A stretch of 63,438 bases of DNA, the filler included. It is 10 parts of 10 records of this genome, joined end to end, with 100 filler letters (N's around TTAATTAATTAA, not from the genome) between each part and the next. Parts side by side here need not be neighbours in the genome. Positions count along the whole stretch, not along the records: positions 37,317 to 45,433 come from SRR9670534_257; 9 more parts are not named here. The stretch is one strand, 5' to 3'. Position numbers and translations under genes: made by a program. The notes beneath the pieces were generated by a model. It had not been told where the DNA came from. It was given only the letters and a program-made list of their open reading frames with translations, and ran no database searches. Positions 4,935 to 63,000 of the stretch are shown here, in pieces (position 1 is the stretch's first letter; the number at the start of each line of letters is the position of its first letter).

Positions 4935-5034
4935 NNNNNNNNNNNNNNNNNNNNNNNNNNNNNNNNNNNNNNNNNNNNTTAATTAATTAANNNNNNNNNN
5001 NNNNNNNNNNNNNNNNNNNNNNNNNNNNNNNNNN
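4935..5034. other. Artificial assembly gap with a six-frame stop linker (also at 17926, 23346, 34057, 37217, 45434, 54244, 56405 and 59579)
   Basis: Identical 100-nt N44-TTAATTAATTAA-N44 pattern at all nine sites. Confidence 0.97.
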
Positions 5035-23039: not shown

Positions 23040-23519
23040 ACGTTATTTCCACACACTGAACCCTATGCAATAAAAACACTCCAACTACGCTTATCATATC
23101 ATTTATGATTTTCATTTTTTTCACAGTCCGATTTCTGCATATGCAATTTTTTGTCATTTTCTTCTCAACTTATTAATTATTATTAAATTATTGCTACTAT
23201 TATTAAAAACTCACTCTATTTATTGGTGCCTGGCAATAAAAGGTTGAAAAAGACTTGTTGTTTACTACTTTTCTATTGATAAGAATTATAATATGTTCAA
23301 CATATGATATGATAAAATAATAATTTTATTATTATTATTAATAATNNNNNNNNNNNNNNNNNNNNNNNNNNNNNNNNNNNNNNNNNNNNTTAATTAATTA
23401 ANNNNNNNNNNNNNNNNNNNNNNNNNNNNNNNNNNNNNNNNNNNNTAATAATAATAATAATAAGGGCTATTCCTAGCCTGACTATTTTCATTACAATGTA
23501 ATCAAGTATAAGTGCTAAC

Positions 23520-27736: not shown

Positions 27737-30700
27737 TCAACTTTTACCACTAATAAGCCAAGTCAAAAAGAGCAAACAACGATCAACGATTAATGAACCA
27801 ACTAAATCTACAACTAGTACTGTAACAAATAAGTAAGACAAAGTGGATGGCAGGGCTACAAGTTCTAATGATGATGCAATATCAGGCATGAGCCCTGTTG
27901 TCATAGAAATAATAAAAACGATTGAAATAACAATAGAAATCAACATTTGCTTATGTTCCAATAAGGGAATCATAAACGGTTTGCCCTTATAATTAACAGT
28001 AAAGGTGAACACTTCCATTGCGGTGGCAAACAAATAAACCACAGTGTTAATTAAGCTGGGCTTAAATTTGGCATCAAGTATGTCAACTTCCTCTCCACCA
28101 TCCATTGTTCCATTTTGGGTCCCATTGTTGTTAATAAGATCATTGTCAACTTCTTGAGAGGAATTGTTTGGAAAAAGTTCATTTTGTATTACCGTTGTTT
28201 TCTGAACCAAAAATATTAAGCAAGCTATGTGAACGGCAAATTGGCCCAGAACAGTCAATGGATAGTAAAAATTGAAGATGTTTGGAAGTGGTTTAGCCTG
28301 TGATAATTGCGGTAAGGGTTTAGACCAACTTATAAATAGGAAACACCCCGCTAATAAGAGACCTTGTATTGTTGCCTGTGAATCTGAATACTTTAAACCA
28401 TCCAAATAAAGGACTGATTGTGAATATGCCAAAATCAAGGAATTTATTGCCAAAATCTTGAACATTTGTAAAGTGTTAACCAATGTGCACCTACCTTGCT
28501 TAATAATATTACACACTGCCTTTATCGAACTACCCTTGGAGGTAAATGGAGCGGCAATGCTAGCATCACCAAGTCGCACCACAGTTAGTTCCTCTTCCTC
28601 CATTTCCTTCATCAATTCTTGGATTTTGGCATTCATTTGATTATTGCCAGGTCTACCTTGATTTAAAACCGCATTTCTACGAGCCTGTTTAATTTCGTTA
28701 AGTTTTTCATCTCTTTTGGCCACCTTTTCTGCGATTTCTGCAGAGAGTAGAGCAACACCCACATTAGCATGCTTTAACGCCCCCACATCATTAGTACCAT
28801 CTCCAACCATTAAGGTCACGTGGCCTATGAACTTGAATGCATTCACAACTAGTTCCTTTTGCTTTGGAGTAACTCTAGCAAAAACCTTCACACATGGCAA
28901 AATGGCCAAAAAGTGGTTCCAATAATTTTTAGCCAAAAAAGACAATGCGTGTCCTGTTAAACACAAGTTATAGTCCCCGAGCACTTCTCTAATTTGCTTT
29001 GGAGATTTGGAGTCGCCCTGGAAAGGTATGATTGATTTGTTTTGGTGAGGATGATCAATGACTCCAATATTCTCCCAGCACCATAAACCGTCATCATCAT
29101 CCTGTAACAATAAAATGCCAGGGTTCTTTTTCTCCCGCTTCCGTCCAATAAAGCCTAACTCTTTAGCTACATGACACGCTGTAAGGGCGTTGTCACCAGT
29201 AATCATCACAACCGCATGACTAGAGTGGATTATTTCTCTAACGTTAGCCTTAGAATCAACCTTCAGTGGGCAGGAAATAACAAGAAAACCCGCAAAAACA
29301 AGCTCACTTTCTGCTTCCTCCCTGTTCATTACTCTTGCCTCGTTGTGCCCAATGGCACCTAAATTTTTTATGCCCATAGATAAAACTCTTGCTCCTTGTC
29401 TAGAAAAATGCAGGTATGTCTGATCATAATTATCTGGAACTACAACAAATTTAGATTTTAAAACCTCAGGAGCACCCTTTGCTGTTACCAAAAAAGTGGA
29501 ATCAGAAGTTCCCGGAGTATTATAAGTACAAATTGTTGACATGCGTTTAACTGTAGAATTAAAATGAAACCTTTTGATAATTTTCATACCAGGAATCTTA
29601 CCCTTACTTGGAACAACAGCATCATTTTTAGTTACGTTCCATTCAACCGCAGAAATGATAGCCTTTTCCAACGGATCACCAATTAAAATATTTCCACCAC
29701 CTCCCTCTTGATTCAACTGGGCCAAACTATGACAAGAAGCCATTGTTCTTATGGTATTCAAAGGTAGGTCTGACATTGAAACAAGGGAATAAGGTTCTCC
29801 TTCAGAACTAGTAGACTGTGGAAAAGCAACACCCTCAACTTTCAGAGTGTCAAGTGTTAACGTTCCAGTTTTGTCAAAACAGCAAGTTGATAATTTCCCC
29901 GCAAAGGGAATACGGAAAGGTTCTGTGCAAAATATTCCGATTTTAGTCAAGGCTATAAGACTGTTATTCACTGCCAAGGACAGCTCTATTGGTAATTCTG
30001 GGGGAACAACAGATGTGATGATCAAGATACATTCCAGTAAGAGCTTGTATTTGTTTCTGTTGGGATTCTCACCACCTTTGATCCAAACATATGCTGATGC
30101 AGAGAGAGCAAATACAAGCAAGAAGAGAATAACACACCCTGCTTCCAAATTGTTTTCAGTAACCCTTTTGACACCATACAGTATGGTTCTTAACAATTTT
30201 CCCTGCGATGTACGAAAATGAGTTCTCAAAGCATAACCAGTGACACCTCCATCTTTTGCCTTTGGAAATTGCCAGCTTTTATCACTTGAACTTGTCGGTG
30301 AGGTATTAATTTGAACCACTTTGGTGCCACCAAATAAAACATGAAATTTATGATCATTGTCAACATCTAAAACCGCATCTTCAGTTGTGTCAACTTCTGA
30401 TATGGATTCTTTCATTTGCGGAATTGACTCTCCGGTAAGTAGACTTTCATCAACTATGCATTGCCCTTTCAGCAACAAAATATCACATGGAACAAGTCTT
30501 GAATCGTCCACAGCCCTAGTTATTGAAACGATATCTCCTGGTACAATATCTTCAGTTGATAATAACTTCCACTTTTTATTTCTCAAAATGTTAATTTTAT
30601 ACGCTTTGTTTCCCATCTTTTTAATCTCTTGCAAATTCCTAATTTGAGACTTGACCAAGACCACTTCAAAGGTAACCAACATAAACAAGGTGAACATACT

Positions 30701-31327
30701 GTAGTACCAATATTCATCCAAACTCCACAAAAAACAGCATAAGACTTGAAAGACAAAAAAGGGGGCGGTAGCGCGCTCAACGAAAAGTTCCATAAACGGG
30801 GGAATTTCCATGACAATTTGATTCGGACCATGTTCCCGCTGCAAATTATTTACAACAGTGTCATCCAGTGACTTGGCGTTCTTATAAAATGACATTTTTT
30901 CTTTTAAGGGTAATTTTACCGCATGAAAATGGGCTCCGTCGTATAAATACTTAATCTTCTGATAATAAAAGTAAATGTCATCAGTATCTCGAGACTTCTT
31001 GAGATCAACCAAATGAAGCATGTTTGAAGTTGGATCTCGCAACCGTACACGATCAGATGCCGCTATGGTGTCGACCTTACTGCAAGTCAACAAACATTTT
31101 ATTCTTATGCTCCAATAACATGTCAGAACAGTCAGTACTTGAAAGAATCCTATAACTGCCGTTATTATGCATCCTGCTAACCAGTGTTCCGTCAAAAGTT
31201 CGTTAGAATACCAAAAGGCAAACCAAACAGAATATATGATACCAAAAGGCATGGCATAAAAATGCAAATAACCAGCACGAGTACGAAAATATTCAATATC
31301 CTTGAAGCTTTCATCCTTGTCCTCCAT
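27737..31327 (-). CDS. ATP13A1: P5A-type ATPase (ER transmembrane-helix translocase); intronless CDS
   Basis: PFFVFQV, LTGESIPQMKE, PPELPIELS, FDKTGTLT, GDPLEKA, KGAPE, MITGDN and GDGTNDVGALK motifs; likely start MEDKDES at 31327. Confidence 0.95.
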   Translation of the reverse strand: MEDKDESFKDIEYFRTRAGYLHFYAMPFGIIYSVWFAFWYSNELLTEHWLAGCIITAVIGFFQVLTVLTCYWSIRIKCLLTCSKVDTIAASDRVRLRDPTSNMLHLVDLKKSRDTDDIYFYYQKIKYLYDGAHFHAVKLPLKEKMSFYKNAKSLDDTVVNNLQREHGPNQIVMEIPPFMELFVERATAPFFVFQVLCCFLWSLDEYWYYSMFTLFMLVTFEVVLVKSQIRNLQEIKKMGNKAYKINILRNKKWKLLSTEDIVPGDIVSITRAVDDSRLVPCDILLLKGQCIVDESLLTGESIPQMKESISEVDTTEDAVLDVDNDHKFHVLFGGTKVVQINTSPTSSSDKSWQFPKAKDGGVTGYALRTHFRTSQGKLLRTILYGVKRVTENNLEAGCVILFLLVFALSASAYVWIKGGENPNRNKYKLLLECILIITSVVPPELPIELSLAVNNSLIALTKIGIFCTEPFRIPFAGKLSTCCFDKTGTLTLDTLKVEGVAFPQSTSSEGEPYSLVSMSDLPLNTIRTMASCHSLAQLNQEGGGGNILIGDPLEKAIISAVEWNVTKNDAVVPSKGKIPGMKIIKRFHFNSTVKRMSTICTYNTPGTSDSTFLVTAKGAPEVLKSKFVVVPDNYDQTYLHFSRQGARVLSMGIKNLGAIGHNEARVMNREEAESELVFAGFLVISCPLKVDSKANVREIIHSSHAVVMITGDNALTACHVAKELGFIGRKREKKNPGILLLQDDDDGLWCWENIGVIDHPHQNKSIIPFQGDSKSPKQIREVLGDYNLCLTGHALSFLAKNYWNHFLAILPCVKVFARVTPKQKELVVNAFKFIGHVTLMVGDGTNDVGALKHANVGVALLSAEIAEKVAKRDEKLNEIKQARRNAVLNQGRPGNNQMNAKIQELMKEMEEEELTVVRLGDASIAAPFTSKGSSIKAVCNIIKQGRCTLVNTLQMFKILAINSLILAYSQSVLYLDGLKYSDSQATIQGLLLAGCFLFISWSKPLPQLSQAKPLPNIFNFYYPLTVLGQFAVHIACLIFLVQKTTVIQNELFPNNSSQEVDNDLINNNGTQNGTMDGGEEVDILDAKFKPSLINTVVYLFATAMEVFTFTVNYKGKPFMIPLLEHKQMLISIVISIVFIISMTTGLMPDIASSLELVALPSTLSYLFVTVLVVDLVGSLIVDRCLLFLTWLISGKS

Positions 31328-32005
31328 CTCTCTAAACAAATAAATTAAATAAATCAATTTTTTGACAAAACATTTAAACATAATGTGTAAAGCCCATAGA
31401 CAAAGAGGATTGTCTATGTCTATGGTAAAGCCTATCATGATAAAAAACATATACATAATATAGATTTGAAATATTAGTAAAGTTAAATTATTAAAAATAA
31501 CTGATGTCTAAATAATTACTACCGTTCATTAATTATCCTTAGCAGAAAAATATGTATCAAATTCACATACATGAGTAATATCAATAACACTGGAATCTCT
31601 AAAAACACCATAATAATAAGATTGTTATTACATACGCATTGAGGCAGCAGTCATTGATGATAAATAATAAGATGGATGTTTAGAACAAACAGTAGCATGT
31701 ACCTTATTAAAACAAAAAATTCTTAACTATACTATAGTAAGCATTTTAGACCAAAAAGTCCCATTAAAAAACTAATACGTAATGCTTGATTCTAACGAGT
31801 AAACAATATACAAAGTAAACATAATATGCTTATTAATAATAACATACACAAAAGTGACATGTTTTAATTCCAAAAACACAAAATTGACATGTTATAATTC
31901 CAAAAAAGTACTAAACGTACAATGTGTATCAACACATACTTACAGTAACCCGACAAATTGTACATATACGAACATAGTTGAAATAAAAAATAAGTTGAGC
32001 GTGAT

Positions 32006-33842: not shown

Positions 33843-36189
33843 TCCTAATTTATCTAAAAGTGTTAGAGAAATGATTAGTTTTATTCAAAATTTAAACTTA
33901 TTAAGTATGGTCATCATTATTATGACATAATTTACACCGCATTATTGTATACTAATAAACATTATTAAACTTCTGCTAATAATGTACTATTATGACATTA
34001 TTATAATCATTATAATATAATGTACTATTATGACATAATAATGTACTATTATGACANNNNNNNNNNNNNNNNNNNNNNNNNNNNNNNNNNNNNNNNNNNN
34101 TTAATTAATTAANNNNNNNNNNNNNNNNNNNNNNNNNNNNNNNNNNNNNNNNNNNNTTTTATTCTTTGCTATGTTTCACCACAGTATATGCATATTCTAT
34201 TAAAATGTATATATGCATACAGAGTATACAGAGATTTTAGCAAAAGAATACAAAGTGTATATAGGGAATAGAAAGTGTCAAAAAAATTGAAATTTTTGCA
34301 TACATACTTTATAGATGCTCTTTAAATGAAATGTTTAGCTGAGTACTAATAGGTACTTAAAAATCTCTTAAAAAGTTTTGAAATTTCTTTTGGTAAAAAT
34401 TCTTTAATTGGTTTAAAATTTTTCTTAGATAATTTGACATTTAGATCTCTAAAAATATATTTATTATTTAATATTATATTATTAATAATTAAATTTAAAA
34501 TATTTACTTCAAAAGTTTAACAGTATTAAGTAGTTAATTTTCTTCTTTCTTCTTTAGATAATACATTAAATTACTTCTTAGTAATTTTAAAAATAAAAAT
34601 TGAATATTTTTACTTATATAAAAAATTTCTAAAAAAACTTATAAGCTAGGTACTTAATAGTAACATGTCTTTTGAATAAGTTCAAAACAAAATCTTTTAA
34701 AGGTTTTTAAGACATTAAATATTTTCTGAAGTATTTTTAATTCTATATCAGATAAATCAAATTTAATCTTTAAATCACTGCAAGAATTTAACATAGTTTT
34801 TAATTTATAAGAATCTTTTAAGCATATTAGCAATTGTATTCCATCTAGTTTTACAATTTAATATAAGATTGAACTTATGTTGAACTTTTTTTGTAATATA
34901 AATTTCTATAATAATTTAACAAATATTATAATTATTAATTTTAAAAAATTAATTATTTAAACAATAATTAATATTATTAAAAACTATTTTACTTTGTAAA
35001 AAATTATTTCTAGCCCTATTAAGCATTAAAAATATTTTCTTTGTTAAATACAATTTTAATAATATCTACCTTCTAACTATTATTTAATATTAATACCAGT
35101 AGTTTGTCAAAAATTTTAATATCAAATTTTTATTTTATGTAAATTTTTTTACTTTCTTATATTAGATTACTACTAATTTTATCTTGCTTAGCTTTGAAAT
35201 CTTTATCTTCTTTAGTTAGATCTTTAGATTCTTTAGAAAAATTTTTAACTTTTTTAACAGTTTTCTTAGTAGCATTAAGTTCTAAAGTAGAATTTATATT
35301 TTCTTCAATAGTTAAATTAGAGAAATTTTTTAATTTTTTATTTCTTTTTAGATTTTAAGCAAAAAATTTTCATAATAGCTAAATGTATAATATGTGTAAA
35401 GTAAATTTAATCTTAGTAAGAAATTTATAATTAATTAATTACATAAGCCTTTATTATTTGAAGATTATTAAAATAGGAAATCATTAACATTAATGCCTAT
35501 ATATAATACTTAAACAGTATATATAGTAAAAAAATAAGTATATATTATTGATAATAATTTATTATATTATTAAATTTATAACATAAAAATATCAATTTTT
35601 TCTATTTTGTTATTATAGAAGCTTTATTAGAAATAATAGTCATTATATTAAATTTTAAAATGTTCATTCAAATTCTTTTGACTTTTTACTGATTGCTTTC
35701 AAAATAATATTAGTTATTATAATTTTTAAAACTTTAATTAAGCTCAGATTAATAATTTAAAACTTTTTATTTCTGCTTGCATAAAGAATGATGTTTATGT
35801 ATCTTCTGTTAGATATAAAAGATATTTATTTATTAACTACTAAACTAAATTTTATCTTTATTTTCTTTTTCTTTAAAATAAATTGTAAATAAACTTTAAT
35901 AATATTTTATATATTTTATTAATAGTATTAATTTAATATTCAAAATATATTTCTTAATTTTCTAAAGCTTTTCATAATAAAAAAAAACTATTTTATTCTT
36001 TACTATTACATAATGTTTGGGAATAATAATTTAAAACTTACTATTATCGCCAACATTCTTTAAGAAATGTCAAAAAATATAGCAACAATGCTAAAACTAA
36101 GACCATATATAGCAATTCGAATTTATTTTTTTTCATATAGGTAAAGCTTTGGTCAGTAAAATGCTAAATCATTTAAAATGGAATTATAA

Positions 36190-37216: not shown

Positions 37217-37335
37217 NNNNNNNNNNNNNNNNNNNNNNNNNNNNNNNNNNNNNNNNNNNNTTAATTAATTAANNNNNNNNNNNNNNNNNNNNNNNNNNNN
37301 NNNNNNNNNNNNNNNNTTATTATTAATTCGCTAAA

Positions 37336-37837: not shown

Positions 37838-38974
37838 TTAATATTTATGCAGTGCCGTACAGTACAATACATATTCTCTATACAAACGATATAATTTCAT
37901 AGTCATTTCCGCATCTTCGAAAGCATCATGCAATTTCTTTTGAATGTCGCTTTGAAACAACATGGATCCCATATGTTTTAATTTCGCTCCTTCAGAATGC
38001 ACAAATAATGTTTGGTAAAAAAGAAGCTTTCGAATATCTACCGAAACAAATGGAGGAAATTCATCAATTTCCAAAACTTTGATATCTGTGTCGATATCAT
38101 GGCCAACAATACACTCAATCCATCGATCACGGAGTATGCTCAGAAATTTTTCTTTGACAAGGGAATGGTCAATCCCACGTTCTTTCAGAAGCGCCCGATC
38201 TATACCAGTAATTGATGTATAAGTATCTACGATAGGATCTTGCGGATCTTCCTTAACGTATTCGTTCATGAGGATTTTGCCCTCAAAATCTACCACGGCA
38301 ATCTGACTAAGGACCACAGGCCTATTTTCAGTTGAAACATGTTCTGTATCAAATGCAATTATTCTAGATGGTTCCACCTGAAAGTGCTCTTCATCTCTAT
38401 GAATTTTGACAATAAAAGTATATACTTTATGTTATTGAAAATGAGTCATTCATTTGATGATCACATGACATGATGTCACTGACGTGAGTCATGTGATCAA
38501 TAAGGCGGAGCTAAGAGCAGGCGCACTGCTATGCAACATGTTCATAGGGAGCAAAACGTTGTTACTCGAATTTTGACAACATTGTGTTAATTAAGTTATT
38601 GCTTTAAGTTATTCAATTAAGCAATAAGTTATTATTAATAATAATGCAATAAATATTAGAAATAGTGACACCTACAATTTAAGTGCATTCATATCGATGC
38701 GTTTTAGCCGATTAACGTCCAATTTAAATGAAAAGTCTGTAGTATGCTGTCTCAGCCTTGCAGACATATTAGCCAGTTTAATTAATTCTTCTCGATTATC
38801 ACCCGTCAATCCCAAACCAAGTAGATCAACCATTGAATTCAAAGCTACAGAATAGTTCATTTATGTTTGCAATTATTATCTTGCAATGCTACAGATATAA
38901 AAAATTAGCACAAGGTACATACTATTATTTACAGATTCTACTGAGGCCGATAATTTCGGAATTGCTCTTCGCAT
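37838..38974 (-). CDS. REXO4/ISG20-like DEDDh 3'-5' exonuclease, paralog D
   Basis: AFDTEH (ExoI), VGHDIDTD (ExoII), LHDAFEDA (ExoIII); upstream exons at about 38974-38923 and 38847-38676 join via a phase-2 intron to 38396; start uncertain. Confidence 0.85.
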
Positions 38975-39648: not shown

Positions 39649-40716
39649 TTATAGGTATTTTTGTAAAAATTGCCGGTAATATTTGTAAACTTTCATTGTC
39701 ATAAGTGCATCTTCAGCCTAAAAATAAAACTTTCATTTAAAATACCCTAACATTTATAAATATTTTACCGAATCATGGGCTAAGCCTTTAATCTGGAAAT
39801 TCCGATGATCCCCGCCAGGTATAATCTCTGACAAAACCTTCAAAGAAGGTAAATTCGCTATACACCCACTCAGCATATGATAAAATGTTAATTTCTGGGT
39901 GTCAATGACTAATTTAATCAAGCTAGAATCAACCATTTTTAAAGCCTTCAAATCGTTATGCACTGCATGTCCAATAACAACCCTTCCAGACAGTACACGT
40001 TGCAAATCTAATCTAACTTTATCAAAAGGAACTCCTTTGCTGCGAATATCATATTCAGTTATGCCTGAATATTTGGTTCTGTAATCAGAAATACAAACGC
40101 CTGATGGAGGATAACAAAACTGGTCAAGGACTAGTTCTTCATAGTAATTGACGACGGATACTCTCGCAATGAGATTTAGCCTTTGCCCACCAGAACCATG
40201 TCTTTTACCTTCAACCATTTCGCAGTCTATAGCATAACAGTCATCCTCATTCAAGGTTATGTATTCCCTATCTTCATCGCTAAATAAAAAAGATGTCGTT
40301 ATGAAAACGTAGAAATTCCGAAACATTTCATTCAAAAAGATGTCACCCAATAAAAGCGGCATAATTTATCTCTTCGGTGGATAGAATAGACGGTGAGAAA
40401 TTGCTCAGTTGATTGCTTAGGTCGTTCAGTCTTTCAAAAATAATGCTTAGTTCGGTTGCTTTTTCACTTTTCAATGACGGTAAAAGTGGTTTAGTGTAAG
40501 ACTCATCAACTATAAAAAGAAAAGCCCTTTTTGCTGCATCAGTATACTGTGAAGTGGAAATATCACTCACCTTTTTCGCATATAGATCGTAGCCTTTTTG
40601 ATAAAACATGTAGGCTGTTATTTATTTCTGCCTAAAAGCAACGAAATAAGCTACATAGAACAAAACGGAAAATTATCTATCACCTCTCTCTTCATACATT
40701 CCTTTGGGAATTCCAT
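39649..40716 (-). CDS. REXO4/ISG20-like DEDDh 3'-5' exonuclease, paralog C
   Basis: Five exons: MEFPKECMKRE|AEINNSLHVLSKRLRSICEKV|DESYTKP...FIG|DEDREY...YAIDCEMV...IGHAVHNDLKAL...AHDS|AEDALMTMKVY. Confidence 0.9.
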
Positions 40717-41063
40717 TACCACCTAAATAGAAAAGCTGTATAGATATAAAAACAGCAAGAAGATATCATCATATTTAATACTTAAAATTATATTTTTGCA
40801 TAAAAAATTTGTTAATTTGAAAAATCATTCAAAAACAATTCAGATATTTGGCATTTGAGAGAGTAATAATAACAGTGTTGTAGTAACCTTGTATAATAAC
40901 ATACCATAAACAAATTCATTTGCATTAAAATAAAGCTAATAGAAGATAAACAAAAATTCAAAATAAAAGTTAAAATTCAAGAATCCTACTAAAAATTGTT
41001 AAACTCAATGAAGCAATAAAAAACTGAGGATGTTGCAAAGTTAAAATGAGTTTCTATTAGATT

Positions 41064-43162: not shown

Positions 43163-43398
43163 TCTCCAACGGTTGCAGTCCAGCCTAAAACAAACAAGTT
43201 TAATAAAGCCATGAAATCACAAGTTGTAGACAAAAAGCTAAATATACCTAACTAATATAAGCTAAATTTTTATAAAAATGGTAATGATATGTCATGCAAG
43301 TCATAAAAATGCGTATATTTCAGCAAAATAAATCTTATTTAAAAAAACTTGAATATGCTTATGCAAAAAATAAGTTAACAATCTTCCAAAACCACGAT

Positions 43399-43949
43399 TT
43401 AACCCAAGCCCAAAATGGATACTGGTAACAAAAATAAAGTTCCATACACATCTTTGCTTTTTTATACTAAAATGCATGAATATTATTGATAAAAATTAGT
43501 TGTAAATAAAGCAAAATTACTGAAATTCTTACCAATTTGCCCGAATATTCAATTTCACCATAGTCTTTTGAACTTAGGTCAAAAACCTTTTGCAATTGCT
43601 TTAAACTGTGTGGTTGTTGGTTGCTATTTTTGCTAGTGAAAAACTTTTCTTCAGAAAGATCAAAAAGTTTCTTGGAATAGTTCTCAACGTCAAATCCACA
43701 TCGAGCCAATTTTTCCTTCACTTTAAAACCGATTAAAAGAAAGTTATTCTCTAGACAATAGGATAGGATTCTCCTGGCAATTTCATCGCCTTCCGCCTCG
43801 TGGGCAATGTCTAATTCTTCGTCTACCGTAACAACTGCCAAAATTTCATCATATTCTTCATCTTCTTCGCTTTTTTTCAAAAGAACTTCTACAGCAAGTT
43901 TTTTGGGTCTGGAAGAAAGTTTGGTTAAAAGAGATTCCATGGAAGGCAT
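43399..43949 (-). CDS. Degenerate (pseudo-catalytic) REXO4-like exonuclease, paralog B
   Basis: Exons 43949-43533 and 43466-43399; aligns motif by motif with its neighbours (LAVEV, LLIGFKVKEKL, LFDLSEEKFF, HSLKQL, GKL|YKKAKMCMELY) and shares their final phase-0 intron, but lacks the catalytic residues. Confidence 0.7.
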
Positions 43950-44106
43950 AGTACACTATAGTGTACACATATTATAGCAACGGTTGTACGACAAGTGTTC
44001 GCACGAGAAGTGTTCTGCCTAGAAATTAGATACATTAGCTGTAGTATTAACAAATTAACAAATCTAAACTTATAACAATCCTAATATACAACGAGGTAAT
44101 GATCAG

Positions 44107-45113
44107 TCAAATTTTAATCTTTTCTTTTGAAACTTGCAATTGAACAAATTCTTGTAGTTCTGATAAAGCGCCATGCTTGCTTGAGCATCCTCGACCTGAA
44201 ATTCAGATTTATTGTTTTGTACTTATTACTGTACTACAAGTGACGTAATACATATTACGCAAGCTTATCTGACTTACTGGGTCATGATTTGCTCCTTGTA
44301 TGTCAATGTCCAAAACAATTTTGGAAAGTTTCTTCAAGCTGGGTAGCTTATGGCCAGCAATCTTTTTAAATTCAGGCAATGCTTGCGTATCTCGTATTAA
44401 TTCTTTTGGATGATGCAGTTTTAAAGCTGATAAATCATTATTTACAGCATGTCCTACTAATATTTTGTCTTTAATTAATTCTGCAACTTTCTTTTGTGCA
44501 GTTTCGAATTCCAAAGCACTGGAAGAATAAATGACGTCTTTAGGATGAATTCCAGAAACTTTGGTTCGAAAACTAGTCACAAATTCTGTGGGCTTAACAA
44601 ATTGATCATACAAAACATCACCAGCACTATCGACCAGACATACTCTAGCCAACAAACTTACATTATTCGCACCTCCCACCATTTCGCAATCAATTGCTAT
44701 TTCTTGTGAATCTATCGAACTAAAAATAAATTCAGCTGATACTTTTATAAACGCAATGTCCTAACAACGTACAGTACACGTAATAGTAACTGAAATACTG
44801 TATAATTGTACGGGCCGTACAGTACGGCACAAGTATTGTACAGCAGTACTGGGCCGTACCGTACTGCAGTTTTGTACTGTACAGTACTGCAGTACGGTAC
44901 GCTACGGTACCGTCGGTACGGCACAAGTAATGCTAGTAAAGTATACCTCTTTTTATTGTTAACCATTTTACTCCTATTCTTCATAACCTTTGCAATGATA
45001 GATGTATATCGATCTTTTTCAGAAGTTGATTCTTCTTTACTACGTTTGGAATGCATTCTCTCCATAGGCTCAACTAATTCATCCTCATCGGTAGTTTTTC
45101 TCTTTCGAAACAT
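44107..45113 (-). CDS. REXO4: RNA exonuclease 4-like DEDDh exonuclease, paralog A (most canonical copy)
   Basis: Basic N-terminal exon 45113-44947, then IAIDCEMVG...LARVCLVD...VGHAVNNDLSAL..HPKELIRDTQ...PSLKKL...DIQGANHDP|VEDAQASMALY. Confidence 0.85.
44768..44930. repeat. GTAC-rich quasi-palindromic tract in REXO4 intron 1
   Basis: 16 GTAC tetramers in about 150 nt; GTACGGCACAAGTA and GGGCCGTAC each occur twice. Confidence 0.85.
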
Positions 45114-45194
45114 ATCTTCTATATGGAAAAGAGAGTATCAAGAAATATCTAATAAATGGAACTAGCACAAAGAAGATAATCTTATTATTCATTA

Positions 45195-45433
45195 TTAATC
45201 AATAAATTCAAAGTGGTTGCAACGAGAGTTTGCATCTCCAGGTTTCCCAATGGGTTTTTGACAACAGTAAAATTTTCTTCCTTTGTTTGGGCCATCTTTC
45301 TTGACAATTCTTAAAACACATTCGATTCTATGACCCTTACACAGAGGTACTTTCTTCTTCTTTTCAAATATGGATGACCATTCAGATGACAATTTCTTTC
45401 TTTTAATATTGGCTTGTTCAAAAAATACCGGAA
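45195..45433 (-). CDS. APEX2: AP endonuclease 2, C-terminal zf-GRF domain; the rest of the gene is in or beyond the gap
   Basis: PLCKGHRIECVLRIVKKDGPNKGRKFYCCQKPIGKPGDANSRCNHF matches the APE2-type GRF zinc finger. Confidence 0.8.
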
Positions 45434-45956
45434 NNNNNNNNNNNNNNNNNNNNNNNNNNNNNNNNNNNNNNNNNNNNTTAATTAATTAANNNNNNNNNNN
45501 NNNNNNNNNNNNNNNNNNNNNNNNNNNNNNNNNCATAAGGTGTTTATTGTTCTGTTAGCTAAGTCTAATTATAATTATTATTGATAATAACATTTATAAA
45601 AAAAGGTTATAACAATACATAAAAACAGTATTACGAGATTCAACACGCAGTGCTGTTGTGATTAATTAAAATAATAATTAGTATGAATTTCACTGTTTCA
45701 AAAGCAGGCTTTACTAACATGCTAACATGCTTGCAACATTTCCACGTTTTATGTAATAATAATGTAGCGAAAATTACGGTTAAGAAATGCTGGGTTAATA
45801 GCAACAACTTAGTGAGGAGTTCTCAGGAGTAATTCAAGAAGCTTCATCGATTCCTGCCTGTACAGTTGCTATTTTAATGCTAATTTCATTGCAGGTGGTT
45901 TTTATAATTATCACTTTTGCTAACTGACTTAATAAAAATAGCCAAAGACTGCAAAT

Positions 45957-48342
45957 ATGGCAAATCAGGTCCTGTCTTACCTGAGAGTATTAAAGTATTA
46001 TGCAAAAACCTATAAGGATCAGCTAGAAGAAAATATAGTACTATCTGACAAAGAAGGTCTTGGCCATGCCCGCACCAAAAAATCCAGGCTTCAATTGGTC
46101 AGGCTTAGTGCAAATGTTTGCGGCATTGAATTTTGCTATGCTGCAGAAACGGCCTTTGTCAGTCCAAGATTGCTTGAAATAGGAGTTCCTGTAAATTACA
46201 TGACATTAGGTTTTCTAACTTTTTTAATAATATGTTTTACATAGGCTAATATGAGGGCTTTTAATGAAACCATTTAGTTTGGTGTATGAGCCCACTGTTG
46301 GGCTTCTTCCTTGCACCCCTCCTTGGTTCTATGAGTGATAAATGCAATTCAAGAATGGGTAGAAGAAGACCCTTTATTCTATTGTTCAGCCTATTTATAG
46401 TAATTGGACTTATTTTTGTACCTCATGGTAAAGACATAGGCATATTATTTGGTGATACTTTCCCACAAACTTTTGATGAGATAAATGCTACCAAGAACAG
46501 TAGTTCTATATTTGTAAAGGAACATGCATCACCTGTCAATTATCATATATGGAGTTTGGTACTAACTTGTGTTGGGGTAGTACTTCTTGATTTTAGCTGT
46601 GATGCTTGTCAGTCACCTGCAAGAACATATATGCTAGATGTAACAATACCAGAAGATCATCCTACAGGTATAATCATTATAATTATGTAATTATAGTTAT
46701 TATTATTTATTAATAATGATTAAAAATAACAATTTTACAATTGAAAATAATAAAGATTGTTTCAGGTCTAAGCACATTTACCATATTGGCTGGTTTAGGT
46801 GGTTGTTTGGGTTACATAATAGGTGGAATAGATTGGGATAGAACACCATTTTCTTCCTTACTTGGTAACAGTTATGCAAAGTTTTATTGGAATAATAATA
46901 ATTTTAATAATTTTTTAATTTTAATAATTATCAGGTAGTCATCTTAAAGTGGTTTTCACATTTGTGTTAGTTATTTATATTGTTTGTTTGGTATTAACAA
47001 TTACTGCACAGAAGGAAATTCCGCTATATAAATTGCATGCAGAATCTGGACAGGTAAACTTGAAAAACGCTGAAACGAAAGTCTATAAAAAGCTAAAGCC
47101 TGAACATAGTGAAAGTGAGGATGAAGATGAAAATACCAACGGCGAGAAAAACTCAGAAAATAAAACAGAAGTTACAGAAGAGGAAACAAAATCAATGGAC
47201 GAAGAGAGTCAAGCTTCTAGAAGCAGAACGATATCCCATCAAAAAAGCATACCTGAAGAAATGCAAGAAGATTTAGACCAAAACATAAGTTTAATGGTCT
47301 ACATGAAATCAATCGTTTACATGCCAAAGTCAATGAAAATCCTTTGCGTAACAAATCTCTTTTGTTGGATGTCGTTACTATGTTATTCTTTGTATTTCAC
47401 AAATTTCGTAGGTAAGGTTATTAATAATAAAATAACTTTGCTCTTTGTCATGATGTTTCTAACCATTTGTAGGTGAAAGTGTTTACAATGGAAATCCCAA
47501 AGCTCCAATTGATTCATTAGAATATCAGAAATACCATAAAGGAGTCAAAATCGGTAGTTATGGCATGGCTTTATACTCAATTTCGTGTTCAGCATACAGT
47601 TTTGTCATCGAGAAACTTGTCATAAAGTTTGGTATGTAACCATATAGTATATTTTATAAATTTAAATCCGTACTAACTTTTGGAATATTGAAAATTTCAA
47701 AAATTTCAAAATTTCTAAGCGTTTTAAAATCATGTTTTCATGTTTAAAATTTCACTTGCTCAGAAAATCACCATGAGGTAATCTTCTCATGAGAAAAAGC
47801 ATGACTACATAAAGTAGGTAGTCAATTATTATTGAGAGATAATTAGTGAGTCATATCCATAGAGAAACAACGCCCAATGTTTGTAATGCTGTAATTGGGC
47901 GTTGTTTCTCTATGGTCATATCCAATATTTAGGTGCAAGAAATGTATATGCTTGCAGTCAAGGTGTCTACTGTATTGGTGCTTTAATCATTGGTTTGTTT
48001 CACTACGCGCCTGTGGCAATAATAGGCTCAATTGCAGCAGGAATAATGTATTCTACACTATTCACTATGCCATACTTGCTAATTGCCCATTACCACGACC
48101 GTGGGCAGTTTAGTGAAGAAGATAATCAATTGGTCAACAAAGATTTAGATAATATTCGAGGATTAGGAACAGATTTGGCAGTGGTAAGCAGCATGGTATT
48201 TGTTGGACAATTTTTATTATGCCTCTTCATGGGGTATATTATCAAGGGGGTAGGAAGCAGTGCTGCTGTCATGATTGCAGCTAGCATCTTTAGCTTTTGT
48301 GGCATGGTAAGTTGCACCAGAATTTCCTATTTGAATATGTAA
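45957..48342 (+). CDS. SLC45 family proton-associated sugar transporter (MFS)
   Basis: GIEFCYAAETAFVSP, LGSMSDKC.SRMGRRRPFI, LLDFSCDACQSPARTYMLD, CVTNLFCWMS, GIMYSTLFTMPYLLIAHYH, RGLGTDLA; about 6 exons. Confidence 0.93.
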
Positions 48343-50300: not shown

Positions 50301-50388
50301 TTAATACCTAAAAACTTGTGTAACAAACAAACAAAAAAACAAAAGTGTAAACAAACAACAAAGCAACAAATGAGCAAAAGAAAGTGAT

Positions 50389-51414
50389 TCATTGGCTAGC
50401 AGGTAAACCTAACTTGCTATTAATTAGCTTCAAATAACTACTAATTAAAAAAGATTTCGCAGATGTTAAACTTAATACCGCAAGATCATCAAGTATAGAT
50501 CGAAAATGAGCAATTTCGTGTTCGTTAAGGGAAAGTTTAGCCACTTCGATTTCCAGTATATTAAGTACGTAATAGCTGTTCTCAACCATGACTAGTTGAT
50601 GAACATCATGTTGTTGTGAATCTTTGTCACAGTAGCGCTTCAAGCGTTTTAGCGCGTCATCCACTATATATTTATGACCTATGATGGTGCTAAGGCACTT
50701 GGTAATCAGATGTACCAGTACGCTCAGAGAGTCCCAACGAAGTAAGCAGGATTCGACTTCGATAAAATTTAAAACGCTGCCATGTAAGTCCTTACTTATG
50801 AGTACTATACCAGCAGCCATCTCACCAAAACCATGTTTTAGCAGCAAATCGAACATTTTTAAAAACGCAGTAAAGGGATGAATAACATTTTCACCAAACA
50901 GACCGAGCTCAGAGATTTTGTTCGAGTTTTCTTCGCAGATATGCTGCCGTAAAAGGCTTTTCAAATGTTCTGCCATGCTTTTCAGAACATCGAGAATTAT
51001 GCCAGATTTGTTGAAGAAAAAAATTTCACAGCCATGCTCTTTTTCAGCTTCTATCGATGACCATAGAAATTTGGACCAAAGAGCAATAACATTTGTTTCA
51101 TAAGCAGCCTTTGACTTTTCGTCTGTAGATGAATCGTCTTCAGGAGTAATCTCCGCCAGATCTGTTACCTTTGGTGGATGCAACAACCATTTGTTTGTAT
51201 CAATTTCTTTGACTTTCAACAGCCATTTTAAATACTTATTCTCCTTCTCCAAGAAAGAGTTTTTTTCGTTCAGGTCAGCTGCATTTTCTCTGTTTGATTC
51301 TATCAAAGTTTTCTTATTTACACCAGAAATGTAAGTTTCGATAGACTGACCAAAAGGCTTAGTAGAAATGGCAGTACAAGCTGCAGCAACTGTATTTAAA
51401 TTTACTTCTTCCAT
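50389..51414 (-). CDS. Intronless 341-aa coiled-coil plus helical-repeat protein; possibly a divergent HSF2BP/MEILB2
   Basis: Long clean ORF; N-terminal coiled coil followed by amphipathic helices; weak recalled similarity only (FLWSS ~ LLWGVSS; IGHKYI ~ KGLKYI). Confidence 0.6.
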   Translation of the reverse strand: MEEVNLNTVAAACTAISTKPFGQSIETYISGVNKKTLIESNRENAADLNEKNSFLEKENKYLKWLLKVKEIDTNKWLLHPPKVTDLAEITPEDDSSTDEKSKAAYETNVIALWSKFLWSSIEAEKEHGCEIFFFNKSGIILDVLKSMAEHLKSLLRQHICEENSNKISELGLFGENVIHPFTAFLKMFDLLLKHGFGEMAAGIVLISKDLHGSVLNFIEVESCLLRWDSLSVLVHLITKCLSTIIGHKYIVDDALKRLKRYCDKDSQQHDVHQLVMVENSYYVLNILEIEVAKLSLNEHEIAHFRSILDDLAVLSLTSAKSFLISSYLKLINSKLGLPASQ

Positions 51415-53393: not shown

Positions 53394-53744
53394 TTCTAGA
53401 TGCCAACAGTTAGGTACGGATCATAGACACTGTCTACTATTAGACAGAGGTTCTCCTTTGTCTATGGTACGGAATCAGTACTAGTAGTGCGGTACTACGG
53501 ATTTACTGTACACCGTACGTAATACCTAACCGTATATGTATACCTAGGTACCGTAAGCTACATTAACACAGGCTACGTACATATGAAGTTATAGCAAAAT
53601 TATAGCGAAAATTAATAATAACTAAATGAGGCAGTAAAAAAAGAAAAAAGGATATATGTATTGCAGCCAAGATTGCATTTCAGGCTTATTATAATTGCTC
53701 GTTATATCGTTATTGAAAAGAGCAGATAGTAAGTAAGTAAGTAA

Positions 53745-54101: not shown

Positions 54102-54406
54102 GAAGCTTAGAATTATTAATAGATAATTTAAATTCTATTATTTATTGGCCAAAATATAATAACAATATATTTACAGACAAATATATATAGGTAAACTAAA
54201 ATTTGATTGCTTTTTAATACAGTGGAACCCGCTTAACATCATCNNNNNNNNNNNNNNNNNNNNNNNNNNNNNNNNNNNNNNNNNNNNTTAATTAATTAAN
54301 NNNNNNNNNNNNNNNNNNNNNNNNNNNNNNNNNNNNNNNNNNNTTGACGCAAACATGGCTATTGTAATAATAAGTAACTGTAAACGCTTTTGTTCAAACC
54401 TAACCA

Positions 54407-55829: not shown

Positions 55830-58575
55830 TTTGAGAGAAAGGAGTTTTTTGTACTATGTACCTATAAAATTTATAGTATAATATTGTAAATAGGTAGTAC
55901 CCAAGGACTCCTTTACACCCTTGGGTACCTACCTACGTGTAGAATCTATGGTATGTAGGTACTACCTACTAGGTAGTATGTAATCTATTTCTCAAATACA
56001 GAAGCTACCAATTAATAAGTACATATGTAGGCACTGCCTACTAGGCAGTACTTATTACTACATTATGTAATAATAAGTACAAAAAAAGAAAAGAGAAAAA
56101 AGATTCTTTTTTAAAAAAGAATTTGTAAATTTTGTTTTTATTTCTTTTTTTAAAAAACTTAAACATTTTACATAACATTCTATATTTTTATTAAATAAAT
56201 TCTTTTAGTATACAAACTTATAAAAATGTATATACATAGAACATAATTTTATTAGTTATTTGTATGATTTTTATAGATACTACTAGTAAGATCCCTTTAA
56301 TTATTTCTTTAAGTAAAGATTTCTTTAATTATTTCTTTATTTTCTTTCTTTCTTTTTTTTATAAAAATAAATAATTTCAACTTTGAATGTTTTAAAATAA
56401 ATTTNNNNNNNNNNNNNNNNNNNNNNNNNNNNNNNNNNNNNNNNNNNNTTAATTAATTAANNNNNNNNNNNNNNNNNNNNNNNNNNNNNNNNNNNNNNNN
56501 NNNNGCTATGGCTAAGCAATATACAAAATAATAATAGAAATAGTAGCCATATCTTTCCACATAGAAATTAATGCAAACCTTAAGCAAAGGCCACATTTGA
56601 GTAGTAGCTGCACTTGTTAATTAGCCATAAATTTTAGACTGCATTTTGAAAAATAACTTATTATAGACTACATTTTGAAAAAATAACTTACTAACCATGG
56701 CCTCTTTATAAAGTATTATGGTAATTATAATTATTTTATTTTATAAATTAGTTTTAGTATATATTTAAAGTAGCTAGAAGTTAATAATTCTAAAAACATA
56801 AATTTTAATCATATTAGTTACAAAACTATTTATCTATTAGTAATATAGTATTATATTTAGTAAATAACTAAAATATATTTAGTAAAAAAGTAAAATATTT
56901 AATAAGTAAATAAAAACAGAATTTTATCTGCTATTTGCTACTAAATATTATAGCTAATATTTTTGATATTTGATTTGTATAAAATATATAATCATTGTTT
57001 CATAACTTAGCAATGAAAATTTGTATTTATCAGCACTTCTAGATATGAAACTATAATTGCAAAAAATCTCTAAAGGTTTATCTAGGCTAGTTAGTACTTA
57101 TGTAAATTAAATTTATAAATTCTAGCCTATATCAAATTCAAAATCAGTTATGATAAATCAGTGATTTAAATGAAATAAATTAAAACTACTTAGTTCTACA
57201 AATTTATCTATAGATTATATAAAAAGTATACTCTTATAACTTCAATTTTATTATATTATATTTTTTATTTTATTTTATTTATTTTAACTAGAATTACAAA
57301 AGATTAGTCTTACATTTTTATAAATTAATATTAGTAAATTAATAAATTACTACATATTTTTACATTAGTAAATTACTGCATATTTTTATATATTAATATT
57401 AGTAAATCTAAATTTATATAAATTTTTACTGAAAAATGATATATTTTACTTTTACAATTAAATTAAAAAAACAATTTGATTTTGCTAAGATTTATAATAT
57501 AAAAATATAATTAGCTATTTTTATTAATTATTATGTTCTATAGAAGTTAAATTTCTTTTTTAAAACAATTGTAATCTTAATTTGTCTTTACTGTTAACAA
57601 GTAAAAGACTTACATTATACATTACATAATATAACATCACTATTACTTATAATTAGCATAATTAAATTATGTAATAATGAAAATTACTTATGATTATATT
57701 ATGATAAAAATCTTTGGTATTATACAAATAGCTTAAATTTGATACTTTTAAGTTTTTTATAAAGTTTTTCCAATTTTGTCCCATAAAAAAGACATCTATT
57801 AACATAGGATACTTAATATAGATGTTAGGTAGTAACAATATAAAATATCCAAAAATCATCAATTAATCATAGACTGTTAATAATAAATTATACCAACTTA
57901 TTTTCAATATTATATAAAATCATTGTCTATGGAAACATCTTTTTTCAACATTCTTCAAGCTAATTTTGAGATTGCATTTTGTGTCTACTTTTACTATCCA
58001 CTTCTACTTATGATTTATTTTTATTTTACAGTATAATAGATCTATATGTTACAAGAACTCATAAACCAACTTTGGTTGATTTAGAAATCCTTGATATGTT
58101 ATAGCTTATTTTAAAGAGAAAAGATAGCCCTATCAGATTCCTATAGGTATATATTTAACTTTCTAACAGAAACTTTTTATAATAATAGTAACAGTAATAT
58201 GGCAATAATTGAATTTATTATAAGGTTTGCTAAAAAGGATCATGCCAATAAGCCAGCCTGTATAAACCCCTATTTCTTAAGAATTATATAAATATTTATG
58301 TAAATAAATACTTAATAATATCTTATAAAATATAATTTGCTTCAAAATAAATCAAACATACATATAATTAATTAACAACTCATCTATAGTATATAGTAGC
58401 TTAAAAAGACAGTACTACATGATAAACTTACATACATCAATACATTTTATTATAAATAAAGCATTTTGTACTAAAAAACAACAATTAATGAAACACATGA
58501 TTATTATGCTTCATAATAATTATTACATTGTATTAATTATTATTAATTAATACATTTTCATAAGTTGGGAGCTAA

Positions 58576-59578: not shown

Positions 59579-60067
59579 NNNNNNNNNNNNNNNNNNNNNN
59601 NNNNNNNNNNNNNNNNNNNNNNTTAATTAATTAANNNNNNNNNNNNNNNNNNNNNNNNNNNNNNNNNNNNNNNNNNNNCATAAGCTACTACACTAATTGT
59701 AAGTGTAGTATACTTGTATCGTGATTTTGGCCTTTATTATTGTATAGTGGCAATTCGAAGTTTTACTGTCATTATTGATACCCTTAAATTTTACAAATAT
59801 TATCGCTTGGGATAATAACTAACTTGTCAAATAATGGATTCGGTAATTAATTTATAATATCATGTAACGCTTAACACTGTTAGGCTAACTATAGTTATAA
59901 CGCTAATTAGCGTCCATCGTTGAAATAAAGCCGCTTTGGTTGACTATTTTCGAAAAGAGGGTTTTACGATATCAAAAATTGAAGACTTGGCAAATTTATG
60001 ATTAGATTAACACGCAATTTTTAATAATTACTATATATAGTGATCATATGTAAATGGTTTCCATTAG

Positions 60068-63000
60068 ATGGTGAGGGAAGCTAGAGAAGTCTTTGCTTCT
60101 GGAAGAACAAAAGGTTATGATTGGCGCGTGAAACAGTTAAAAGGCCTGATAAAAATGATCGATGAAAATCACGAGGAAATGTTTGCCACATTGCAAAAGG
60201 ACTTCTCAAAGGTTGGTAGTGTGTATTTTCTTAATTAATAATAATCTCATTATCATTATTATCAATACATAATAATGACTCTGGCATTTATTAGCCAAAA
60301 AATGAAGCATACATGACAGAGTTGGATTTCATACGAAACGATGCTTCTGAAATGTTAAAGAATTTGAGAAAATGGATGAAGGTTAAAAAGGTGATTACAT
60401 AATATTTTGCTGGTTTCTTATGCTGAAAAGAATTTATTAAGCAATTTAACAAGTTTATTAAGCAAAATAGTTTTGTTATCAAATTAAATATTCAGGTCAT
60501 TATTAATAATAAACAAAATTATTTTTTCAAATATAAAGTTTCGATTTTAAAAATGATTTAAACTTCAATTGCTAAAGTTTATTATAAATGTTATAATTTT
60601 ATTATCAATGCCGAAGTTATATTATAAATGATATTATTAATAATAATAATGAAGTTTATCATTATGTACATAAAACCAAAAATGACGAGACAGACGAATA
60701 TTATTTTAGGACAATTGTGTCAACTGTTATTAATATTATACTATACAATATAATTATTATTATTACCATATGTTAATAATAATAATAATGCAAATCTTGT
60801 AGGTATCTAAAGATTTGCATAATTTCATGGATTCTTGTTACATTCGAAGTGAACCACTGGGCGTCACGTTAATAATTGGCATGTCTTTATCATTGTACTA
60901 TTATGATTATTATTAATAATAATAACAATATTAATAAGTCTGGTTAAAACATGTCATTTCAATGATCATTAGTAAAGACTTATCAAAACAAATCATATTT
61001 ATACAATAGCATTATTTTATTACTATAGTAATATACTTATACCTAAACCTGAGCATACTTATTATATATAATTAGTATACTAATTATACTTATACCCATA
61101 CCTAAGTATACTTATACCTAAACAATTTACCATAGGAGCTTGGAACTATCCCTATCAACTTTGCCTCTGTCCGTTAGTTGGAGCTATTGGTGCAGGTATG
61201 CAAAGATGCCTTATCATAATTATTTATGTTTTATTCGTAATAGTTATAAATTAATTAGGCATTAGGCCCTAGTAATTAAACTAAAACCATTGTGAAAATA
61301 ATGGCTACGAGAAACAACTTACAACTTTTGTTAGTTTAACAAAAAAATTATTAAACATTTATTATAATAGCATAATATTTAGTCAAAATATCTAATTATT
61401 ACTAATAAGTAGGTATTTAAAAATGGTATTTGAATATTTGAAATTTTTTTATGTATAATGATATGACAAAACCTGGAAAACTGTTTAGGAAATTGTGTTA
61501 TTTTGAAGCCTTCCGAAATATCAGAACATTGTGCTAATTTTATGGCTGAAAACTTGCCAAAATATCTGGATAATGTATACCTACTTATAAGTAACCTATA
61601 TTATAAGTCGCTGTATTGTAGCATGCTGACTACTGATGACTATGAGTCAGCTGACTAATGCTGACTATATTATTATAAGTCGTTGTACTGTACATGCTGA
61701 CTATTGAATAATGCATTACTACATGATGACGTCATCATAGGAATGTATTAAAGTAGTATGTGGTGGCGCTGATGTGGCTCAGGAGTTGCTTGAAGTTAAA
61801 TTTGACAAAATTTTCTATACTGGAAGTGGACGCATTGGTAGGATTATTATGGAAGCTGCGTCAAAGTTTTTGTGCCCAGTTACGCTAGAACTTGGCGGAA
61901 AATCGTATGTTCAAAATGATGAATGTTGGCCAAAAATGTTTATTACTATAAACAGCCGTATATACAATAGTATGAAAACTCACCCCTTTATGATGTACAA
62001 AATTATTAATCAAATATTTGTAATTGCTATTAGAATGTTTAAATTTCGCGTTTTTAAAACTTTTTCAAAAAGTTTCAAAAATTTTTATGTGATTGCTCTT
62101 AGCTGCAGAGTTACAATACTTACTTGCTAGGCTATTGTGTAGTTTATAATTATTGTTATTAATTTGTAGACCATGCTATGTTGATGACACTTGCAATATT
62201 CCAGTGACTTGCAGAAGAATAGCATGGGGAAAATTTACAAATAGCGGGCAAACGTGTATTGCTCCAGATTACATTCTTTGTCCAAGAGGATTTCAAGAAA
62301 GGTTGGTTGATGGTTTTAAAGACATCATTACAGAATTTTATGGAACTGATCCAAAGGAAACTTCTGACTTTGCACGAATTATAAACAAAAGACATTTTGA
62401 GTAAACATTTTTAATTTAATAATAAAATAAACCTTATTTGAAATCATCAAAGATAAATCGCGAAGTTTGATTAAATTACATTTATTTCAGCCGACTTTGC
62501 AACTTGCTAAAGTCTGGTAGAGTTGCAGTAGGCGGAGAAATTGATGAAGAAAACCTTTATATCTCCCCAACTATACTGGCAGATGTCAACCTAGATGACG
62601 CTGTTATGAGTGAGGAAGTATGATTATTTTTTGAAAAGAAAATAATAAGGACTTTACCGTATATGTATAAGGCCTAGAATAGAAATTATGAAATGATACT
62701 TACTCTAACAATTGCTTTGTCAGATCTTTGGACCAATTTTACCCATTATTGAAGTCAAAGACGCCTTTGAAGCTGTTCACTTTATTAATACAAGGTTACA
62801 CTATATTATACTATGGTAAAATAGTAAATTATACTGTAAATAGCAATGGTGCATGTACTATATAGTACTAGATGTACTATATATATTATATAGTACATCT
62901 AGTACATATATTATATAGTACTAGATGTACTATATAATATATATACTATACATGTACTATATAGTATATACTATGTCATACTATATTGTATTATATAGTA

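Follow-up and report, generated by a model that had tools for sequence, protein, structure and literature searches.

Tight same-strand gene junctions and start-proximal acceptor-like sites in AT-rich, gene-dense DNA: candidate operons resolved by spliced-leader trans-splicing

Three same-strand gene pairs in the DNA analyzed here, which comes from a fast-evolving invertebrate, are separated by only 81, 88 and 96 nt from the upstream gene's stop codon to the ATG of the downstream gene, and each of these spacers has a splice acceptor-like site 5–7 nt before the ATG. Sites of the same kind stand directly upstream of other start codons. The best single explanation of the junctions and the start-proximal acceptors is, in our judgment, that the genes are organized in operons resolved by spliced-leader (SL) trans-splicing, a reading that we hold with middling confidence and that draws on the DNA sequence itself.

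The window, by which we mean the whole stretch of DNA that was analyzed, is 63,438 bases long and is made up of ten contigs (2–13 kb), which are connected by 100-nt linkers, nine in all and identical to one another, with the structure N44-TTAATTAATTAA-N44 (positions 4935–5034, 17926–18025, 23346–23445, 34057–34156, 37217–37316, 45434–45533, 54244–54343, 56405–56504 and 59579–59678). The DNA is AT-rich (about 15–39% G+C in 2-kb windows) and gene-dense. Pfam scans, which covered 32, 44 and 10 stop-to-stop ORFs, identified the animal genes CC2D1, Nup85, a Ras-family GTPase (Rho-like by eye), Cluap1, an EF-hand protein and a class C GPCR. Further genes identified in these scans were ATP13A1, three of RNase_T/REXO4 type, DUF229, an MFS transporter, MPPE1, GT49, a gene with five CBM_14 exons, a lipid desaturase (PF10520) and an aldehyde dehydrogenase.

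Results

The junction between the APEX2-type exon and REXO4

The reference junction is on the minus strand. Its upstream side is formed by the last exon of an APEX2-type gene (45195–45433), which encodes a C-terminal GRF zinc finger (Pfam PF06839, Zn_ribbon_GRF, E = 5e-12) and ends in a TAA stop at 45197–45195. The readable part of this exon amounts to 78 aa; its 5' side is cut by the linker at 45434–45533, and beyond the linker the next contig begins with the plus-strand MFS gene. The longest single PDB alignment of the exon was to the Zf-GRF of Xenopus APE2 (5U6Z; 61 aa, 57.3 bits), while the top PDB row overall was NEIL3 (7OMK), with 58.3 bits summed over two GRF stretches, the better of which scored 43.4. 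The hallmarks of APEX2 are an exo/endonuclease-phosphatase domain and a single C-terminal Zf-GRF, of which the readable piece covers the Zf-GRF exon only. The nuclease domain and the body of the gene lie outside the readable sequence because the linker at 45434 cuts the exon and is followed by the plus-strand MFS gene. Taken from the GRF exon, APEX2 is a likely name for the upstream gene. The original prediction had used this name outright; what was found of the gene is its GRF zinc-finger last exon.

The downstream gene, at 44103–45113 on the minus strand, has three exons (45113–44947, 44719–44278 and 44195–44103) whose frames add up to a protein of 233 aa. Its introns have the boundaries GTATAC...TTTTTAG and GTAAGT...TTTCAG. 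Exon 2 corresponds to Pfam RNase_T, and a database search, in which 130 of 209 candidate proteins were retained at E ≤ 0.001, returned best matches named RNA exonuclease 4 or Rex4 with 45–57% identity. With its DEDDh RNase_T domain and these best matches, the identification of the predicted protein as REXO4 is well supported. There is an in-frame TGA eight codons 5' of the REXO4 ATG.

The spacer between the two genes (45114–45194, minus strand) spans 81 nt, from the TAA at 45197–45195 to the REXO4 ATG at 45113–45111, and is U-rich as had been claimed, with 37 T, 24 A, 11 C and 9 G. The hexamers AATGAA, AATAAT and AATAAG occur directly 3' of the stop. At the other end, the acceptor-like CTCTTTTCCATATAG (45119–45133, minus strand), which is the candidate trans-splice site, has its AG at 45120–45119 and is followed by AAGAT and then the ATG, which places the AG 5 nt before the start codon and 76 nt 3' of the APEX2-type stop. 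It scored 6.2 bits with the position weight matrix (PWM) described below, higher than 11 of the 32 cis acceptors on which the matrix was trained. No donor-like site in this spacer scored as high as the 25th percentile of the donors used for training. The description of this junction in the original prediction (its 81-nt length, its pyrimidine tract and AG, and its lack of a convincing donor) was thus correct.

Two further tight junctions and the spacing of genes

Two more tight same-strand junctions, neither of them picked out in the original prediction, emerged from mapping of ORFs and spacers. The second tight spacer, of 88 nt (50301–50388, minus strand; 52 of 88 bases are T), separates an orphan ORF at 50392–51414 from MPPE1, whose ATG is at 50300, and its acceptor-like AAGTTTTTAG ends 7 nt before that ATG (AG at 50308; 4.7 bits). 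The third, of 96 nt (3719–3814, minus strand), lies between the last-exon stop of Nup85 (3817–3815) and the ATG of CC2D1 (3718), and the acceptor-like CTCTTTTTAG in it stops 6 nt short of that ATG (AG at 3725; PWM score 8.4 bits). The distance from stop codon to acceptor at the three junctions is 76–90 nt. The remaining same-strand spacers measure 153–677 nt, and adjacent genes within contigs were co-oriented in 12 of 15 pairs (P = 0.018).

In none of the three tight spacers does a donor-like site reach the 25th percentile of the donors used for training, against a background in the whole window of 4.9 such sites per kb per strand. The only donor-like candidates lie within the coding regions upstream. 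A cis-spliced 5'-UTR intron would therefore require, at each of the three junctions, that transcription start within the upstream gene. Genes whose upstream regions are long may have a cis donor there, because donors arise by chance about five times per kb. The three spacers had no motif in common beyond their T-richness, and no clear Ur-type element was found in them by eye. Hexamers of the AATGAA/AATAAT type are present at or just 3' of the stop in two of the three, and no AAUAAA-like hexamer was found in the Nup85–CC2D1 spacer. AATGAA-type hexamers are common variants of the polyadenylation signal in nematodes.

The orphan ORF upstream of MPPE1 (minus strand) begins with an ATG, runs uninterrupted for 341 aa and belongs to no Pfam family. 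It had no match among 1.84 billion representative proteins. A language-model search for look-alikes gave a lead to clusters of Mei4 at 0.90, the recognition value being lower than the level stated for known families; the ORF could be an orphan or else a meiotic gene that evolves very fast.

The REXO4 gene is one of three RNase_T/REXO4-type genes (37841–38431, 39757–40365 and 44212–44760) that form a single 7-kb minus-strand cluster, with DUF229 and one gene without a Pfam family between its members. One of them, paralog C, is 33% identical to REXO4 by BLASTP (E = 4e-26). The gene without a Pfam family has two exons (43358–43949, minus strand; ~190 aa) and is directly downstream of REXO4, beyond a spacer of 153 nt. 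By eye it resembled, at 43470–43955, a degenerate REXO4 paralog, a reading that was rejected because BLASTP showed no significant similarity (E = 12). The spacer between REXO4 and this gene has a fourth acceptor-like site, also within the range of 76–90 nt from the stop codon. The regularity of this distance carries little weight, because such motifs are frequent.

Acceptor-like sites at start codons across the window

The acceptor PWM was trained on 32 cis-intron acceptors of the window, seven of them read by hand in the REXO4 cluster and 25 selected from GT..AG candidates that keep the frame between neighboring ORFs of the same gene. A few errors are probable among these 25 and would only weaken the matrix. 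The cis acceptor consensus in this DNA is T-rich, with TAG commoner than CAG, followed by G.

The seven other start-proximal sites listed in the original prediction were all recovered at the distances it gave. In addition to those of CC2D1 (6 nt) and MPPE1 (7 nt) described above, they are, all on the minus strand, the sites of a TMEM104-type gene (477–491; 10 nt before the ATG at 466; 6.4 bits), of ATP13A1 (TTTGTTTAG, 31332–31346; 4 nt before the ATG at 31327, with the best PWM site of the upstream window at 4.1 bits), of REXO4 paralog C (40723–40737; 6 nt before the ATG at 40716; 9.4 bits), of DUF229 (43185–43199; 22 nt before the ATG at 43162; 11.3 bits) and of GT49, where the weak GGCATCTAG (53396–53410; 4.6 bits) ends 2 nt before the ATG at 53393. 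A site absent from that list was found on the plus strand at the aldehyde dehydrogenase gene, where TTTCCATTAG (60053–60067; 5.4 bits) abuts the ATG at 60068. Of the four plus-strand genes, three have no start-proximal acceptor-like site. The base that follows the AG is a purine at most start-proximal sites, as at the cis acceptors here (G at +1 contributes 1.4 bits). Only 4 of 11 acceptor-like sites have a TAG that shares the frame of the ATG, and these TAGs are therefore not the stop codons that bound the ORFs.

The start codons that could be defined numbered 16, comprising the eight of the original prediction and eight more, and were compared with 2621 other ATGs of the same DNA. The best site within 35 nt upstream scored a mean of 5.3 bits at the 16 starts and 2.6 bits at the control ATGs (Mann-Whitney P = 1.7e-4). 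A PWM threshold set at the 25th percentile of the true acceptors was reached at 7 of the 16 starts and at 16.4% of controls (P = 0.009), and a model-free rule (an AG within 12 nt together with 8 or more pyrimidines out of 10) was satisfied at 5 of the 16 and at 4.1% of controls (P = 3e-4), with the enrichment stemming only from the eight genes of the original prediction, as the eight further starts resemble the controls (P = 0.09–0.5). On the antisense strand of the same upstream windows only 2 of 15 reached the PWM threshold. About half of the definable starts have no acceptor-like site, and in T-rich intergenic DNA motifs of at least 4 bits occur roughly once per 50–100 nt.

Search for an SL RNA gene

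An SL RNA gene with an Sm site, for which the original prediction had suggested looking, did not come to light in the Rfam and pattern scans of the 63-kb window. Rfam gave no match of any kind at the gathering threshold, the 22 weak Rfam matches at E ≤ 5 included no SL family, and a strict pattern of donor plus Sm site yielded no candidate in the window. A loose form of the pattern yielded 13 candidates there, which were unconvincing by eye, several of them being inside coding ORFs, and were rejected. The absence of an SL RNA gene from 63 kb says little on the whole genome.

Taxonomic placement

ATP13A1 had no close relative among database proteins: the best 120 matches listed were 39–52% identical and came from arthropods, molluscs, hemichordates and nematodes alike. 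In the ATP13A1 trees a very long branch leads to the query, which groups as the sister of three chromadorean nematodes, with support of 99 in FastTree, 94 in a quick IQ-TREE search under C20 and 94/98 in a careful IQ-TREE search. Forcing the query into the arthropods was not rejected against the quick IQ-TREE tree (p = 0.68), the constrained tree being even better, and was 8.85 log-likelihood units worse than the careful tree (AU p = 0.026). The query and the nematodes have in common a 6-residue insertion, a 1-residue insertion and nine exclusive residues, the loops with the nematode-like insertions being variable; the query has no exclusive residues in common with arthropods, lophotrochozoans or deuterostomes. 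Long-branch attraction in this placement is possible.

The other genes contributed little on this point. A DUF229 search restricted to longer proteins gave 17 matches with no taxon signal, and the tree placed the query in a protostome polytomy. The REXO4 matches came from fungi, a sponge and insects, and the REXO4 tree was uninformative on placement. For GT49 the nearest Atlas clusters were arthropod B4GAT1-like. A Pfam match to DUF1280, which we take to be a C. elegans-specific family, was considered as a taxon marker and set aside, since the match (E = 6e-4) fell below the family cut-off. A search for related loci found a single distant one, 36% identical, among metagenome contigs, while genome contigs yielded none.

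Based on the sequence comparisons, we consider a nematode or nematode-allied origin of the DNA to be somewhat probable. We think it unlikely that the organism is instead a fast-evolving non-nematode, such as a chelicerate or a member of a minor ecdysozoan or protostome phylum, from a lineage for which SL trans-splicing and operons are both undescribed. In that case the three junctions and the start-proximal acceptors would offer a first glimpse of an SL/operon system that had evolved independently and whose intercistronic regions are unusually short.

Discussion

A model of the junctions

If the junctions are SL-resolved operons, the T-rich-(T/C)AG sites 2–22 nt upstream of about half of the starts would be 3' splice acceptors, to which a spliced leader would most likely be joined in trans. 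The pairs APEX2-type/REXO4, orphan ORF/MPPE1 and Nup85/CC2D1 would then be neighbors in polycistronic transcription units. In each, cleavage and polyadenylation of the upstream mRNA would take place no more than some tens of bases 3' of its stop, and the downstream mRNA would obtain its capped 5' end through addition of the SL at the acceptor 76–90 nt after the upstream stop. We infer the use of the acceptor sites, an SL RNA as their 5' partner and polycistronic transcription from the anatomy of the junctions. The original prediction had seen in this region the signature of trans-splicing and operons. The close co-oriented genes, the enriched start-proximal acceptors and the lack of donors in the spacers agree with it, and the half of the starts that have no such site does not.

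Alternative explanations

An alternative that we regard as possible, if doubtful, is that the genome is compact, with a separate promoter for every gene and with transcription units that abut or overlap, and that the sites are either cis 5'-UTR acceptors, with a donor and first exon further upstream, which for the tight pairs would mean within the upstream gene, or T-rich/TAG motifs that go unused in front of genes with very short 5' UTRs. Donor-like sites that reach the threshold do exist within the coding regions upstream; one of them, 17 nt ahead of the orphan ORF's stop, would give an intron of 101 nt, and introns as short as 44–68 nt occur in this genome. Some genes have upstream regions of 347–677 nt that leave ample space for a 5' exon, and half of the starts are without any acceptor-like site. 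A compact animal genome without operons is on record in Dimorphilus (PMC7854359). Against individual promoters stand the start of transcription inside the upstream gene that would be required at all three tight junctions, the lack of a donor-like site in any tight spacer, and the acceptors 2–10 nt from the ATG in eight genes. Acceptors only 2–10 nt before the ATG are typical of taxa that use SLs. We find it improbable that the pattern is a coincidence of composition, in which T-rich DNA with frequent TAG produces look-alikes of acceptors and the short spacing reflects gene density, even though sites of at least 4 bits occur about every 50–100 nt in intergenic DNA, the eight additional starts resemble the controls and the sample is small (16 starts and three junctions). 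The enrichment held across all 16 starts under two scoring schemes (P = 3e-4 to 0.009), with control ATGs that were drawn from the same DNA, and the antisense of the same windows reached the threshold in only 2 of 15 cases.

Dicistronic mature mRNAs have been described for some Drosophila gene pairs, and the tight pairs here could in principle be of this kind, with no trans-splicing and with the second ORF translated through reinitiation, leaky scanning or internal entry. The spacing of 81–96 nt and the lack of a clear AAUAAA in two of the three spacers would fit such mRNAs, as would an arthropod placement of ATP13A1, which was not rejected against the short-search tree (p = 0.68) and only marginally against the careful one (p = 0.026). 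Reinitiation is disfavored by the length of the upstream ORFs (341 aa for the orphan, and larger for Nup85 and the APEX2-type gene), and dicistronic mRNAs would leave unexplained the acceptor-like sites at genes with long upstream regions. We consider this explanation highly improbable, and continue to favor operons resolved by SL trans-splicing.

Comparison with known SL and operon systems

SL trans-splicing is known among animals in nematodes, flatworms, tunicates, cnidarians, ctenophores, chaetognaths, rotifers, copepods and amphipods, and operons are known in a subset of the animals that have it (PMC7986045, PMC7668243, PMC7854359). The distribution of both is patchy, and whether it reflects many origins is treated as an open question in one of these reports (PMC7986045). 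SL trans-splicing and operons in a new lineage would be an extra data point for this patchy distribution, and one from a lineage outside nematodes, flatworms, tunicates, cnidarians, chaetognaths, rotifers and some crustaceans would be especially informative. If the organism is a nematode, operons are textbook knowledge and the finding would be routine. Acceptors directly before start codons also matter for annotating a compact genome, in which the genes of an operon are easily fused or given wrong starts by gene finders.

The original prediction held that operons may be undescribed for the taxon; the one phylogenetic signal obtained points to nematodes, in which both SL trans-splicing and operons are well described (PMC7668243). 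The junctions studied here resemble the operons of C. elegans and Trichinella spiralis (PMC7668243, PMC7986045) in having close co-oriented genes of which only a part has an acceptor, in lacking a cis donor, and in having a U-rich tract and an AG followed by a purine a few nt ahead of the ATG of the downstream gene. They differ in their distances. For T. spiralis operons stop-to-start medians of 250–380 nt are reported (PMC7668243), in contrast to the 81–96 nt from stop to ATG observed here. The medians from poly(A) site to trans-splice site are 129 nt in C. elegans and 124 nt in T. spiralis (PMC7668243, PMC7986045), whereas here at most 76–90 nt in total are available. A nematode SL2-type operon is expected to have the poly(A) signal of its upstream gene, then about 100 nt and a Ur element ahead of the trans-splice site. 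For C. elegans a range of 50–200 nt is quoted, and 76–90 nt would be at the low end of this range (PMC7668243). No SL1 or SL2 gene was found in the 63-kb window, and no clear Ur element in the three spacers. The trans-splice acceptor of C. elegans is UUUUCAG, whereas the acceptors in this DNA are mostly UAG.

Tunicates provide the other point of comparison, as very short intercistronic distance serves as the operon criterion in Ciona intestinalis and Oikopleura dioica (PMC7986045), with an intercistronic distance of 0–60 nt and operon cut-offs of 60–84 bp. Tunicates use one SL for monocistronic and operonic genes alike, which would suit the acceptors at isolated genes here (PMC7986045). The operons of Ciona are described there as mostly without an intercistronic region (median 1 bp) and those of Oikopleura as having a median of about 31–33 bp (PMC7986045), unlike the 76–90 nt from stop to acceptor here, which are thus intermediate between the nematode and tunicate types. 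Also unlike tunicates, the ATP13A1 trees, which contained no tunicate sequence, put the organism among protostomes and not with the deuterostome outgroup. The cis-spliced 5'-UTR introns of ordinary animal genes are similar in that they place a genuine acceptor upstream of the start codon; they differ in needing a genomic donor and a first exon, neither of which is visible in the three tight spacers.

Other features of the window

One linker, other than that which cuts the APEX2-type exon, is flanked on both sides by (TAA)n-type repeats. Intron density is very uneven among the genes of the window: ATP13A1 (27740–31327, minus strand; 1196 aa) is intronless, GT49 (433 aa) and most of CC2D1 are single exons, and Cluap1 and the MFS gene are broken up by numerous short introns (44–150 nt). 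One intron of the MFS gene contains a near-perfect hairpin at 47851–47927 with weak matches to many unrelated miRNA models on both strands. Its assignment as a miRNA (mir-318 or mir-142) was rejected, as the best score was 34.9 bits in comparison to gathering scores of 57–70, and we regard it as a generic hairpin.

The region of REXO4 intron 1 at 44770–44940 is occupied by GTAC-rich, partly palindromic short repeats with strings of the GTACNGTAC type. These repeats recur at 21137–21400 and 62849–62954, and similar strings are found upstream of the GT49 and desaturase starts; they may represent a small repeat or MITE-like family. On the minus strand at 10528–12912 there are five ORF pieces, each with a chitin-binding peritrophin-A (CBM_14) domain, which are probably parts of one multi-domain gene, and their presence suggests a chitin-making animal.
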